This document shows positions 34,401 through 44,353 of a stretch of 64,000 nucleotides of DNA, piece after piece. Numbering within the stretch: the stretch's first letter is position 1; every line of letters begins with the position of its first letter. This DNA comes from an uncultured Phycisphaerales bacterium (GTDB lineage: Bacteria > Planctomycetota > Phycisphaerae > Tepidisphaerales > Tepidisphaeraceae): NCBI GenBank assembly GCA_963844715.1, contig CAWJPJ010000008.1, forward strand, positions 288,001 to 352,000, written 5' to 3'. A program made the position numbers and the translations under genes. The notes beneath the pieces are model-generated. The model made no database searches, was not told the DNA's origin, and worked only from the letters and a program-made list of their open reading frames with translations.

Positions 34401-35428
<1,028 letters not shown>

Positions 35429-35429
<1 letters not shown>

Positions 35430-35815
35430 CAACCGAACCAAAGCAATCCCGACAGGGTGAGGATCAGCACGGTCGCAGTGACGGCGGCGTAAAACCAGTC
35501 GTGCTCTTCAAAGGCGAAGAGGACCGCCGAGACGGCGACGCGCATGACGGGAGTGAGAAGGAGGAGATAGATTCCCAATTCGATAATGCTCTTGCCATGG
35601 CCCTGGCAGATTCCCTGCCAGATGTGGGCGGGGTGGTAATCGAAGGGGTCGCTGGTCATTCTTTCGACGGAGACCGTGCCGTGCACGAAGCTGAAGAGGA
35701 TTCCGACCAGCATGACGGTTAGGGAGACGACCAGGCCGCCGCGGAGAATCCAGCTTGAGGCGTCTTCGATGGCGAGTCGCGGCTGTTTTGGCGGGGATAT
35801 TTGGGAGTCGTTCAT
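35429..35815 (-). CDS. DUF1634 family membrane protein
   Basis: SWILRGGL...IIELGIYLLLLTPVMRV...EHDWFY, the usual partner of TauE. Confidence 0.88.
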
Positions 35816-35819
35816 TTGA

Positions 35820-36680
35820 TTAACCGCCGATGCCCAGGCCGCGCAATAGCATTTGAATTCCGATGATCCCCATGGCGGCGGCGAAGATCTTTCGGATCAG
35901 GGCGTTGCTCATGCGTTCCATTAAGAGCGTTCCGGACAGCGCGCCCAGAACGACGGCGATGGCGACGGGGACGACGAGATAGGGCAAAACCATTCCCCGG
36001 CGCAGATAAACGCCGGCGGCGGCGGCGGCGGTGACGCCGATCATGAAATTGCTGGTGGCCGTGGAGACCTTGGCGGGGAGCTTCATGGCAACTTCCTGCG
36101 CGAGGACTTTTACGACACCGGCGCCGATGCCGAGAAGTCCGGAGATGGCGCCGGCGGCGAACATGATGACCGTCGCGGCGGGGACGCCGGTGACGTTGTA
36201 GGGGACGTCGCGGCGGAGATGTTTGTCGTAATAATGGTTGTCCAATCGCAAGAATCGGGCCAGGCGGTCGCTGGGCATCGGTGGGGGGAGTTCTTCGCCG
36301 AACTTGGCGAATACGGGCGCCAGCGAAATAAGCAGGACGGACGCGAACAGGATATCGAGCAGGCGTGGGGAGACATGTCCGGCGAGGAGGCCGGCGCCGA
36401 TGAGGGCTCCGGTGGCGGTGAAAAGTTCCAGGAACATGGCGACGCGAATATTGGTGATCCGGTCCCTGACATAAACGGAACCCGCGCCGCTGCTGGTGGC
36501 GATGATGGAGACGATGCTTGCGGCGATGGCGGCGTCGATGGGAATTTTTAAAAAAAGTGTGAGAAAAGGAACCAGGACGATTCCGCCCCCCAGGCCGCTG
36601 ATGGACCCGATGAGGCCGCCTCCGAACCCGGCGGCGGCGATTTCGAGCAGCCAGAGAATCGAATGTTCGGTTGATGTCAT
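35820..36680 (-). CDS. TauE/SafE sulfite exporter family protein
   Basis: GLGGGIVLVP, SIIATSSG, SGLLGIGAG and KVSTATSNFMIGVTAA. Confidence 0.93.
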   Translation of the reverse strand: MTSTEHSILWLLEIAAAGFGGGLIGSISGLGGGIVLVPFLTLFLKIPIDAAIAASIVSIIATSSGAGSVYVRDRITNIRVAMFLELFTATGALIGAGLLAGHVSPRLLDILFASVLLISLAPVFAKFGEELPPPMPSDRLARFLRLDNHYYDKHLRRDVPYNVTGVPAATVIMFAAGAISGLLGIGAGVVKVLAQEVAMKLPAKVSTATSNFMIGVTAAAAAGVYLRRGMVLPYLVVPVAIAVVLGALSGTLLMERMSNALIRKIFAAAMGIIGIQMLLRGLGIGG

Positions 36681-36745
36681 GTTCGTCGGTCACCATATGG
36701 ACATGTTTGAAAACACGCAACGCGCGGCATGCCTATAATCCCGGC

Positions 36746-37692
36746 GTGGCAGCGAACGAGCACATGCAGTGCATGGAAGTTTGGGGCGGCAGCGAGACAA
36801 CGCGCCGGGGTGTCGAGATGGGCGGCATGGACGCATGGGTCTATAGCCGTCCGTTTGGGGAAGCGGAAGATGGCGGGGACGTTTACTATGCATCAAGCTG
36901 CGCGACGGGGCGGATCAACCGCTTGATGCTGGCCGACGTGGCGGGGCACGGGAAAGCGGTTGCGGCAACGGCGGCTTCGCTGCGGACGCTGATGCGGCGA
37001 TACGTCAATTTTCTGGATCAAAAGAAATTTGTGCGCTCGATGAATCAGCAGTTTGCGGCAATGAGCCAGGACGGGTGCTTCGCGACGGCGCTGGTCAGCA
37101 CATTTTTCGCGCCGACGCGGAAACTGTCGATCTGCAATGCGGGGCATCCTCGGCCGCTGATCTATCGGGCGGCGGAAAAGAAGTGGTCGATCCTGGAGCA
37201 CACGGAGGCGGAGGACCGCCGGCCTAGCAATATTCCGCTGGGGATTCTCGATCTGGCGGAGTATGAGCAATTCGAGGTGCAACTGAATGTGGGGGACTTG
37301 GTGATCTTCTATACCGATGCGCTGACGGAAGCGCGGACGAAAGACGGCGAATTGCTTGGAGAGGCGGGGCTGCTGGAGATTGTCGAGGGATTGGATCGGC
37401 GCGATCCGGAGAAATTTATCGATGGCTTGCTGGAACAAGTGGGGGCGAGGCACGTGGGGAATCTGTCGAGCGACGATGTGACGATCTTGCTGCTCTGCCC
37501 GAACGGGCGGCGGCCGAACTATTCGTTTGGGGAAAAGCTTTGGCGCAGGCTCGGTTGATGGGGAAGTTGATTCGGGCGATCGATCCGCGCGCGGAGCGCC
37601 TGCCGCTGCCGGACCTGAACCTGGCAAATATTGGCGGAGCAATCATTCCGCGGTTGGGGAAGCGATCGAGCGCGGGGGCAAAAAAATGCTGA
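36746..37692 (+). CDS. stand-alone PP2C/SpoIIE-type phosphatase (frameshift near 37545)
   Basis: MQCMEVWGG, GGDVY, LADVAGHG, FATA, NAGHP, YTDALTE and DDVT. Confidence 0.9.
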
Positions 37693-37750
37693 ATGATGAG
37701 TTCTGAACGATGAATTAAATTCAGCATTCATCACTCATCATTCAGCATTG
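37686..37750. repeat. GAATGAT/GAATGCT heptamer inverted repeat (possible bidirectional terminator)
   Basis: aatgctgaatgatgagt...actcatcattcagcatt forms a perfect 17-bp outer stem between convergent genes. Confidence 0.85.
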
Positions 37751-37755
37751 TCTTC

Positions 37756-37977
37756 TTAAGCCGCCTGTTCGGCGTGTTGTTCCACACCAAAATCGAGCAG
37801 CTCATCCAGAGTTTGTTCGAGTCTTCGCTCGGCGTTTCGAATATCGGGGGTGGCGACGCCGGTGCGGCGGTGGGCCAGCAGGCGGCTGAGACCGTCGGGC
37901 CGGGCCAGGGCATCGACGAGCTTGGCGTCGATGAGGTTTTCGATGGCTTTGCGAAGACTTTCGACTTGCGGGGTCAT
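37756..37977 (-). CDS. 73-aa hypothetical helical protein downstream of the c-di-AMP riboswitch
   Basis: AGGAGA SD, then MTPQVESLRKAIENLIDAKL...AERRLEQTLDELL. Confidence 0.75.
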   Translation of the reverse strand: MTPQVESLRKAIENLIDAKLVDALARPDGLSRLLAHRRTGVATPDIRNAERRLEQTLDELLDFGVEQHAEQAA

Positions 37978-38100
37978 GGCAGTATCTCCTGCGTCGTCGA
38001 GACGCGAGCAAGGCTCACATGAAAACGCCGACGAATCGGCACGATCGCGCGAGCGGACCAAACAACGGCAGGATCGAGACGCCTCTGAGGCGCATTGATC

Positions 38101-38340
38101 CCTTTCACGTGCCGACGGAGTTAGCTGACGGGCTGGGAGTTGAAAGTCTCCCTCGGCGGGCACAAGAGGTGAAATGAATGGAGCCGCTCACCCAGTTGTG
38201 CCAAACGCCACCGATACGCCCCGATTCGCAGCGACCCCTCGTCAAAGGCATCCACAGGTCGCAAACGAATTACGCCAAGTCGAACAAACCTCAGCGTTGG
38301 GTTCTCCGCGCCGTCCGAGTGCCGGACGGCTTAGGCGGTC
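38101..38340 (-). ncRNA. c-di-AMP riboswitch (ydaO/yuaA family) with a long internal insertion
   Basis: Minus strand reads ccgcctaa-gccgtccg(N5)cggacggc-gcggagaac...tgggtga...agggagactttca-actcccagcccgtcagctaactccgtcggc-acgtgaaagg. CCCGUCAGCUAACyCCGU is the hallmark, CGGAG pairs with CUCCG, and CUUUCA pairs with UGAAAG (pseudoknot). Confidence 0.88.
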
Positions 38341-38352
38341 AAGCGAAAGCGG

Positions 38353-38380
38353 ATTTTAAAAATGATGAGGGGCATGTCAA
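38353..38380 (-). promoter_or_regulatory. sigma70 promoter upstream of the riboswitch
   Basis: TTGACA-N16-TAAAAT on the minus strand, about 12 nt before the aptamer. Confidence 0.72.
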
Positions 38381-42559: not shown

Positions 42560-44353
42560 TCATTCACAGCGCACGACTTCGCCGCCGAATTCCTTGAGGA
42601 CGGCCTGGACGAGCGGGTCGGAGTGGATTTCCGGGGGAATTTCGACGGAGACGCGCGGCGCGGATGCCGGAGGGTCGGCGACGGCGGTCTGGCCGGCGGT
42701 TTGAACGGCGGGCGCGGCGCCGGGTGGGGTAACTTCGAATTTCAGCTCGACCGGCTGGCCGCGGATTTGGGAGAGGGTTCGGCCGATGATTTCGCGCTTG
42801 CCGTTGGAGGCCCAGGCTTTGGCGAAAGTTTCGCCGCCACTGCTGAAGCGGATGACGGCTTGGCCGTTTTGAAGAGATTCGAGGGTCGCCAGATTCAGTC
42901 CTGCGATGAGAGCGGAGCCGTGGGGTTTGAGCATGGCGATGAGGCGCGGCCAGATTTTTACGACGTCGTCGTCGTTGATGGGGACGACGGAGGGCTCGGG
43001 GGCGGGGGCGTCTGAGTGCGATTCCCCCTCGTAAGGTACGCTGGGGGAGGGGAATGAGGCGGATTCTTGCGATGGCGCGGGGCGGCCGGTTCTACGGTCT
43101 GCCCCTCACCCATCGTGCCGAAACTAGCGGAAGAGGACAGGGAGTGCTCTCCCCGTGAGTACACGGGGAGAGGGGATGAAGAGTCAGCGCTTACCGGTTG
43201 CGGGGGCTTTTTTTTTAATTCGGAGGGGGCGCCGGCCAGGAGTTGGTTTATGGATTGGAATTGACCGGACAGGGTCAGGCGGACCAGGGTTGCGTCGAGC
43301 AGGGCGCGGCCGGTTTGATTGGCGCGCATGTTCCTTCGCAGTTCTTCGATGATGGCGATGTTTTGGGAAAGTGCGGCTGGGTCGAATTTTTCGGCCAGGG
43401 CGGCGAGCTTGGGGTCGGCGGGGATGTCGAGAAGATCGGCAGCGGATGGGCCGCAGGCGCGGAGGATCAATAAATTGCGGAACTGGTCGCTTAGGACGGA
43501 GAGGAGCGTGTCGGGGGAGAGGCCGGCGGCGATCATTTCCTCGACCTGCGAGAGGACGGCTTTGACGTCGGCGCTGCCGATGGATTCGGTGAGTTGATTG
43601 ACGAGCTGCGTGCGCGGGGAGGCCGAGCATTTGCTCGATCATTTTGGCGGTCAGACGTTTTTCGCCGAGGCTGAGGAGGCGATCGAGGAGGGAGAGGGAA
43701 TCACGCATGGAGCCGTTGCCGGCGCGGGCGACGAGGGCCAGGGCGTCTTCGTCGGCGTCGATCTTTTCCTGCTTGCAGATGTTCTTCAGGTGCCCGGCGA
43801 TTTCGCGCGAGGAGATATTTCGGAAGTCATAGCGCTGGCAGCGGGAGAGAATCGTGGGGAGGACTTTTTCGGGCTCCGTCGTGGCGAGGATGAACTTCAC
43901 GTGTTCCGGGGGCTCCTCGAGGGTCTTGAGCAGCGCGTTGAAGGCCGATTTACTGAGCATGTGCACTTCGTCGATGATGTAGACCTTGAATCGGGAGCGG
44001 GCGGGGCGGTAGCGGCTGTTTTCGATGATCTCGCGGACGTTATCGACGCCGGTGTTGCTGGCGGCGTCGATCTCGATGACGTCGATGTCGTCGCCGCGGG
44101 CGATGGAGAGGCAGGAATCGCATTTTCCGCAGGGAGCGGGGGTGGGACCCTTGGCGTTCTGGCAATTCAGGGCTTTGGCGAGGATTCGGGCCATGCTGGT
44201 CTTGCCGGTGCCTCGGGTGCCGCAGAAGAGGTAGGCATGGGCCAAACGGTCGGTTTCTATGGCCTTTTTGAGGGTCTGGGCGATGTGTTGCTGGCCGACG
44301 ACCTCGTCAAAGGTGCCTGAGCGGTATCTGCGGGCCAGGACGGTGTAGGACAT
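42560..44353 (-). CDS. dnaX: DNA polymerase III subunit gamma/tau (frameshifts)
   Basis: [39 protein letters not shown] and GSMRD, with C-terminal [13 protein letters not shown]. Confidence 0.96.
43102..43176. repeat. REP-like palindrome with the ~35-nt insert, inside dnaX
   Basis: cccctcacccatcgtgccgaaactagcggaagaggacagggagtgctctccccgtgagtacacggggagagggg. A degenerate inverted partner lies at 43023-43060. Confidence 0.82.
43207..43216 (-). other. A9G slippery site in dnaX (candidate gamma/tau recoding site)
   Basis: GAA TTA AAA AAA AAG CCC near codon 380, and both alternative frames stop within a few codons. Confidence 0.7.

Follow-up and report, generated by a model that had tools for sequence, protein, structure and literature searches.

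A minus-strand transcription unit in a 64,000-nucleotide stretch of a Tepidisphaeraceae genome (the window, part of contig 8 of the source genome) couples a c-di-AMP-class riboswitch with its own promoter to the gene for a 73-residue protein, and we estimate at roughly 0.5 the probability that this riboswitch shuts off the synthesis of a short-lived, helical-hairpin protein that assists in taking up potassium or in balancing osmotic conditions. The riboswitch class itself is already known; what is new is the tightly linked small-protein target and a lineage-specific variant of a peripheral arm. The target protein family appears to be undescribed. Our literature search returned nothing on the protein or on switches of this kind in Phycisphaerae; primary riboswitch papers and their supplements, which lay outside this search, could list such cases. 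According to PMC7266159, it is chiefly through associations between riboswitches and genes that functions in the c-di-AMP regulon have been found.

In window coordinates, the unit consists of the following features:

38353-38380, minus strand: sigma-70-type promoter, with the -35 element TTGACA at 38375-38380, a 16-nt spacer and the -10 element TAAAAT at 38353-38358
38095-38347, minus strand: ydaO c-di-AMP riboswitch aptamer (Rfam RF00379; 43.9 bits against a gathering cut-off of 38, E = 4e-8)
38304-38336, minus strand: 5' strand of P1 (38334-38336), P2 hairpin (38310-38330) and 5' strand of P3 (38304-38309)
38223-38298, minus strand: enlarged P4 arm of 76 nt, with hairpins at about 38272-38297 and about 38224-38270 (fold energy z -3.4)
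38214-38222, minus strand: conserved GGGGC junction, the 5' strand of P5 and counterpart of the class GGGGUGAAU (Rfam alignment)
38152-38214, minus strand: P6 and its variable extension, about 62 nt, containing GGGUGA at 38188-38193
38102-38151, minus strand: P7 with the pseudoknot loop (38141-38146) and the conserved core (38121-38132) (Rfam alignment, pair counts)
within 38102-38151, minus strand: 3' strands of P3 and P1, and the pseudoknot 3' strand (38102-38107)
38068-38101, minus strand: conserved platform hairpin abutting the pseudoknot strand, with a candidate anti-Shine-Dalgarno element as its 3' arm (38068-38075)
38013-38054, minus strand: variable middle hairpin, the tip of which is a UUCG hairpin (38025-38042)
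37986-38005, minus strand: hairpin next to the Shine-Dalgarno sequence (37991-38005) and the Shine-Dalgarno sequence AGGAG (37986-37990)
37756-37977, minus strand: gene for the orphan helical protein, 73 amino acids, ending in Ala-Ala; predicted helices at residues 3-25, 29-39 and 44-72
37679-37749, minus strand: 65-nt inverted repeat (37685-37749) followed by a T run, directly past the stop codon (by eye and hairpin match)

The RNA is a member of the RF00379 class of c-di-AMP riboswitches, every testable defining feature of which is present. When the whole window was put through the standard gathering scan, RF00379 was the sole match, and the covariance model matched significantly without deletion of any insertion, which bears out the ydaO-type aptamer proposed in an initial annotation of this DNA. 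The P2 hairpin and the CUUUCA/UGAAAG pseudoknot lie in their expected places, as do the strands of P3 and the CCCGUCAGCUAACUCCGU core. As judged from the Rfam alignment, the pair counts and the base stem of P6, helices P1-P3 and P5-P7 are arranged around two three-way junctions, the same core that PMC11963983 gives, and the RNA occupies a 5' leader downstream of a promoter and upstream of a gene. Among the 51 of 53 loci that could be parsed, the P1 pairs are invariant (51/51), the fifth pair of P3 occurs as A-U (43 loci) or, by a compensatory change, as G-C (eight), and P7 likewise shows compensatory changes from A-U to C-G (47/3) and from G-C to C-G (45/5). All six pseudoknot pairs are kept in these 51 loci as standard or G-U pairs; since they are nearly invariant, the pseudoknot is documented as complementarity and not as covariation. 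The promoter claimed earlier, TTGACA-N16-TAAAAT, was recovered at 38380-38353, where it fits the search motif at 11/12; three such sites were found against 1.0 expected in shuffled sequences. The -35/-10 pair is present in 52/53 loci, with a spacer of 16 nt in 46 and of 17 nt in six of them, and both TTGAC and the -10 A are invariant in all 19 aligned leaders. The AGGAG Shine-Dalgarno sequence with its abutting hairpin could likewise be confirmed.

The proposal of a c-di-AMP-class riboswitch in a planctomycete is supported by the RF00379 match, by the presence of a diadenylate cyclase gene and by the retention of the motif upstream of the small ORF. A diadenylate cyclase (DAC) domain (PF02457) scores above its cut-off in the source genome next to a YbbR-domain gene, though the cdaA frame is split in the assembly, and DAC is found in 60/61 genomes of the taxonomic class. 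As do many other genes in the assembly, cdaA (whole in most relatives), the APC permease gene, kdpA and one that looks like dnaX by eye each fall into several frames (L001:291-2240, L002:371-1385 and window 42958-44353), likely as a consequence of assembly or sequencing indels. Two RF00379 switches were detected in the genome, the other one before an AA_permease_2 (APC) gene, and the other switches of relatives stand mostly before APC permeases and once before a TrkH gene. We take the APC genes behind these switches to encode KimA-like potassium importers. Additional c-di-AMP switches, at L236, L254, L259 and L178, are located ahead of genes that by eye resemble SPFH/flotillin genes. By analogy with its class, the RNA of the window would almost certainly bind c-di-AMP.

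The pairing of riboswitch and small ORF held in every locus tested: RF00379 lies upstream of the ORF in 19/19 loci and the riboswitch core motif in 52/52 GTDB loci, two sets that overlap and consist of kin that are not independent. In view of the 52/52 linkage, the riboswitch would very probably control the 73-residue ORF; and since the same protein stands behind a c-di-AMP-class switch in every related locus examined, it is likely to be a new part of the control of potassium or water balance. The protein occurs in 62/141 Tepidisphaeraceae genomes, and in 18/36 family relatives versus 0/24 genomes of other families in the class; a search of 400 other genomes of the phylum gave nine weak matches, all judged to be chance frames, and none was found in the phages and viral contigs searched. 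RF00379 itself was found in 28/36 family relatives and 16/150 genomes of the phylum. A profile search for the protein returned 1035 sequence clusters, and the nearest homologues and loci are labelled as Tepidisphaeraceae, Tepidisphaerales, Phycisphaerales or Phycisphaerae, with one record each labelled as Planctomycetota and as Methylococcaceae. One genome flagged as unpublished (G004) enters several of the genome and locus tallies as a single row, and no conclusion depends on it. None of the RNA sequencing runs contains the stretch of this organism (shares 0.04); in the four runs, out of 24, that were mapped, the aptamer core and ORF of relatives are covered, and one 523-nt contig bears both, although contigs from RNA libraries do not prove transcription. 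At one locus (L233; G025:C19:18559-18743), a switch of the two-hairpin type described below is followed by hairpins and, next, by a gene in convergent orientation, with no ORF apparent in between, and this RNA may have lost its target or act as a small RNA.

Between the aptamer and the Shine-Dalgarno sequence with its start codon lie about 110-170 nt of structured leader, in which the alignment of 19 leaders reveals a conserved hairpin (the platform hairpin) immediately 3' of the pseudoknot strand; the variable middle hairpin and the hairpin abutting the Shine-Dalgarno sequence follow. The UUCG hairpin with its short U tract is the tip of the longer middle hairpin and not a conserved terminator, and a terminator scan of the window gave two sites against 2.5 expected. 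By the default of its class, high c-di-AMP would likely switch the gene OFF, the behaviour reported for c-di-AMP riboswitches in PMC11963983. As to how this might be achieved, we regard the following scheme as evenly balanced: without ligand, the pseudoknot strand would lengthen the platform hairpin and thereby sequester the 3' arm of this hairpin, which is rich in pyrimidines; once ligand is bound, the strand would go to the pseudoknot, and base-pairing of the arm with the ribosome-binding site would become easier. In the window, the 3' arm is complementary to the Shine-Dalgarno region over 6 bp (-10.6 kcal/mol). Across loci, the cognate pairing averages -8.11 versus -7.69 kcal/mol for permuted partners, with 158/5000 permutations as good in a set of non-independent kin, and the cognate pair ranks best in only 2/53 loci. 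Modelled folds of the free state pair the pseudoknot strand into the platform hairpin in 34/52 loci, with a modelled probability of 0.24 for the extension in the window itself, and the modelled mean accessibility of the Shine-Dalgarno sequence is 0.31 in the free and 0.28 in the bound state (lower when bound in 19/52 loci, higher in 8/52). The covariation between arm and Shine-Dalgarno sequence is thus weak and the modelled shift small; translational OFF control is our best guess, backed by the OFF behaviour of the class.

The platform hairpin could instead, together with the U-rich stretch behind it, constitute a weak intrinsic terminator and thus control transcription; if such a terminator worked only with the hairpin extended into the pseudoknot strand, the gene would be turned ON by c-di-AMP. 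This arrangement would agree with the conservation of the hairpin, with an 8-nt stretch containing at least five U that lies no more than 13 nt from the hairpin in 26/53 loci, and with the termination of transcription by B. subtilis switches of the class, as stated in PMC11963983. We nevertheless consider it unlikely, for the U tract starts 0-2 nt past the platform stem in only 17/53 loci, the stem of the window is not among the scan matches, the hairpin extends into the pseudoknot strand by a mean of only 1.8 bp, and a strong Shine-Dalgarno sequence and the long structured leader leading to it have been retained.

The product of the gene (37756-37977, minus strand) is modelled as three helices with a mean pLDDT of 88.5, in line with the small helical ORF noted at the outset, and members of the family are about 72 residues long, helical and, by sequence, hydrophilic. 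The family found no significant match in Pfam or NCBIfam, and nothing significant was found among PDB sequences; one search of the ESM Atlas yielded no usable match, and a further one there gave only hypothetical clusters at 0.76. Foldseek searches (PDB, viral) and VIA-align returned only generic helical matches, none of them significant, and no Acb2, Tad1, HTH or ABATE structure is among the fold matches listed. Three longer matches of 163-190 amino acids, which lack domains, provide weak evidence for fused forms. The C-terminus ends in Ala in 141/186 fetched homologues and in Ala-Ala in 67/186, while 45/186 end otherwise and the tail is variable; among 1374 crude genome ORFs, 11% end in Ala and 2.8% in Ala-Ala. 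Clp proteases recognise C-termini of the Ala-Ala type, and the predicted tmRNA tag of the source genome also ends in Ala-Ala and resembles the C-terminus of the 73-residue protein. As far as its sequence allows such a statement, the protein is likely to be short-lived. The tmRNA (contig 7, 1281451-1281832) carries a long predicted tag of 20 residues ending in Met-Ala-Ala.

A link to potassium comes from a single genome (G479), the only one among 141 with a second copy of the protein. This diverged copy, which has no riboswitch, shares 42% identity and keeps 16 of the invariant columns; it is preceded by a KdpF gene and by a short hydrophobic ORF with a stop codon that overlaps the start of the copy, and followed by kdpA, kdpB and kdpC. 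A kdp-linked copy devoid of a riboswitch points to potassium uptake independently of the riboswitch, albeit as a single event: 21 other kdpA upstream regions contain no copy of the protein, and the linked copy is confined to 1/141 genomes. The kdp cluster in question (L267:8372-19001; G479:C140) is expanded, with the KdpF gene and two more KdpF-like short ORFs seen by eye, three kdpA genes, one kdpB gene and two KdpC proteins of 428 amino acids, each with two separate KdpC-matching stretches. An obligate subunit or partner of Kdp was considered and ruled out, because kdpA is found in only 39/62 genomes with the protein and in 38/79 without it.

Judging from the genomic context, the 73-residue protein would, on balance, serve potassium or osmotic homeostasis. 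Its mode of action is a more tentative matter: it might bind a partner, either a potassium transporter or its regulator, and be removed through its C-terminal Ala tag. We therefore put forward, with less confidence than an even chance would warrant, a rapidly degraded c-di-AMP effector that the messenger controls via its synthesis only and that tunes potassium uptake by binding Kdp, the switched APC permease or a regulator.

An isocitrate dehydrogenase-like gene (window 34401-35441, minus strand; relatives L044-L069) lies within 3 kb of the small ORF in 15/52 loci; an operon with it was rejected, the gene being 150-830 nt away even where it is the next one and mostly having a promoter-like motif of its own, as seen by eye. 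In several relatives, TATAGT shortly ahead of its start codon (by eye) suggests a leaderless or short-leader transcript. Three of these relatives (L044, L045, L046) share an intergenic motif of about 100 nt, located about 80-190 nt past the stop codon of the small ORF and before the dehydrogenase gene; the motif closes with a GC stem plus a run of T, and L044 has no Rfam match there. A SpoIIE-family phosphatase gene (window 36671-37558, plus strand) is found near the unit in 24/52 loci, either downstream and convergent or upstream and divergent, a neighbourhood that we read as synteny only. The inverted repeat at 37679-37749, which faces this convergent gene, is the probable 3' end of the transcript, and the terminator scan of the window does not list it. 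It is AT-rich and built of ATGCTGA/ATGATGA units, and some relatives possess similar but different repeat hairpins at this position.

A protein of this kind might also relay the signal at the level of transcription, either by binding DNA itself, as small proteins can, or by opposing a transcription factor in the manner of the phage protein Aqs1, in which case the c-di-AMP regulon would extend beyond the two switched genes. Twenty columns are invariant among 19 sequences, and five of them are basic (R9, K19, R32, R37, R47); moreover, the stretch comprising helix 2, TGV and helix 3 resembles, in our estimation, helix-turn-helix motifs. The top Foldseek row is Aqs1 (E 0.6), with an alignment at Z 6.6 and an rmsd of 3.0 over 58 residues; however, helical hairpins commonly give Z values below about 13, and unrelated chains score as well as Aqs1. 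Single members match RHH_3, GntR and ABATE at E 0.04-0.2, but no HTH, RHH or ABATE regulator profile exceeded its cut-off, and the matches, all below significance, differ from member to member. A role in transcription is hence doubtful in our view.

In the aptamer itself, the initial annotation saw a self-complementary insertion of about 110 nt at 38190-38300. Read as one hairpin, these 111 nt have an ordinary fold energy (z -0.24; 72/200 shuffles equally good), and this reading can be ruled out. In the alignment of 19 leaders, the GGGC of the GGGGC junction is invariant (19/19) and sits in the middle of the stretch, which for this reason cannot be a single hairpin: it comprises the two-hairpin P4 arm, the junction and the 5' half of P6. 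The supposed insertion is thus two separate expansions, of P4 and of P6. The GGGUGA taken for a class hallmark pairs with UCACCU (38167-38172) inside the variable extension of P6, a region missing from many relatives in the same alignment. Nor does the enlarged aptamer escape standard scans, as had been feared, since the standard gathering scan detects the window copy and 19/20 relatives (chosen from 52); a fast whole-genome search gave a shortened RF00379 match of 32.5 bits for the window.

Among 53 loci, P4 varies from 41 to 111 nt (median 63) and P6 from 14 to 93 nt. P4 folds into exactly two hairpins in 53/53 loci versus 49% of shuffles, its fold energy has a mean z of -4.4 (below -2 in 50/53), and its flanks are fixed as AA in 44/53 and CA in 43/53. 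Elsewhere in the class, P4 has a median of 9 nt and reaches at least 41 nt in 4/105 parsed metagenome switches, a background drawn from 119 class-core matches after nine that were too short and five unparsed ones had been left out; one switch (L177), the arm of which is long by eye, is mis-parsed there. The two-hairpin arm is consequently unusual for the class but lineage-wide. One of the four long-armed metagenome switches (L204) stands before the same small-ORF family, and another metagenome switch (L185), the P4 of which is a single hairpin of 92 nt, is followed by a small ORF rich in Cys and by a gene that resembles PII/DarA by eye. PMC5393176 describes a crystallised construct with 2 nt at P4, followed by the same GGGGCGAAUC as in the family consensus; because of this construct, and because the core is listed without P4 in PMC11963983, P4 would be peripheral, and by this analogy the enlarged P4 and P6 arms are likely dispensable for sensing.

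Could the two-hairpin P4 be a functional module in its own right, that is, a second sensor, a protein-binding site or a determinant of changed ligand specificity? Its uniform folding, its fixed flanks and its rarity elsewhere would be compatible with such a role. On the other hand, its sequence and length are free, without a conserved loop, the pseudoknot and all core helices keep their canonical form, and the same kind of arm (49-118 nt) is present in 8/8 switches ahead of one APC-permease subfamily, and hence is not tied to the small ORF; ahead of another APC-permease subfamily, P4 is a single hairpin in 15/18 switches. We thus hold a dedicated function of this arm to be improbable.

It is even harder to envision the protein as a c-di-AMP sponge or receptor resembling phage Acb2 or Tad1, which would create a feedback loop buffering the messenger. 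A Pfam match to Acb2_Tad1_hairpin (E 0.078, residues 45-62) hints at it, as does the alignment of the HRRxGVA loop with part of an acetyltransferase among PDB sequences (E 0.014), a stretch that we presume to be the CoA phosphate-binding loop. Yet the former (PF24729) scores 13.6 bits against a cut-off of 27, spans 18 residues and is found in 2/19 members; searches for phage or viral homologues found none, and the GV loop is lost in the kdp-linked copy. A predicted complex of the homodimer with c-di-AMP scored 0.02 and speaks neither way. Finally, that the ORF is incidental and the transcript acts as a non-coding RNA is hardly credible, for although the ORF has no annotation, it is under purifying selection (pS 0.67 versus pN 0.13 over 38 comparisons, 14 loci having been dropped for an indel or anchor mismatch), its third codon positions vary far more than its second (0.43 versus 0.09), its Shine-Dalgarno sequence and start codon are kept in 19/19 loci, and its frame is open in all 62 genomes carrying the protein.

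One of the two switches detected in the genome is devoted to an unannotated family of about 1,000 clusters, in a pairing that held in every riboswitch-type locus checked. This family offers a candidate effector, small and soluble, to which a concrete and testable hypothesis can be attached (potassium or osmotic balance, C-terminal turnover); should the reading as a rapidly degraded effector be true, it would add a new output layer in a phylum in which c-di-AMP signalling has hardly been studied. The enlargement of the RNA is a minor point that widens the known tolerance of P4 and P6.

In B. subtilis, RF00379 leaders precede kimA (ydaO) and ktrAB (yuaA). With these switches, the RNA described here has in common the core helices, the conserved junctions, the 6-bp pseudoknot, a DAC in the genome and a second copy before an APC-family transporter. 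It differs in its two-hairpin P4 arm of 41-111 nt (against a background median of 9 nt), in a P6 that often carries an extension, in the lack of a consistent terminator, and in its target, a stand-alone, soluble protein that falls into no known family. With riboCdA of Thermoanaerobacter pseudethanolicus, as presented in PMC11963983, it would share the pseudoknot as the switching element and translational OFF control. In riboCdA, however, the pseudoknot strand is the Shine-Dalgarno sequence itself, whereas here that sequence lies about 110-170 nt past the aptamer, so that a relay hairpin would be needed; the same paper shows that signal relay is possible through a stem-loop in competition with the pseudoknot.

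On the protein side, KdpF, DarA and DarB are likewise small stand-alone proteins in a potassium or c-di-AMP context, and one copy of the new family is located beside kdpF; the family is set apart from them by the lack of a Pfam or NCBIfam sequence match and by its hydrophilic, predicted all-helical nature. The phage anti-activator Aqs1 (PDB 6v7u, 6v7v, 6v7w) is also a small helical hairpin of similar size and provided the best Foldseek rows, but the scores given above, tied with those of unrelated helical chains, leave homology unsupported. For the Acb2 and Tad1 sponges, the Pfam match stays below its cut-off, and fold searches gave generic helical matches only. The likeness to substrates with ssrA-like degrons extends to the C-terminus, the ending of which matches the tmRNA tag of the host and is enriched in the family, a resemblance at the level of sequence that would fit a protein made under the control of c-di-AMP and rapidly removed.
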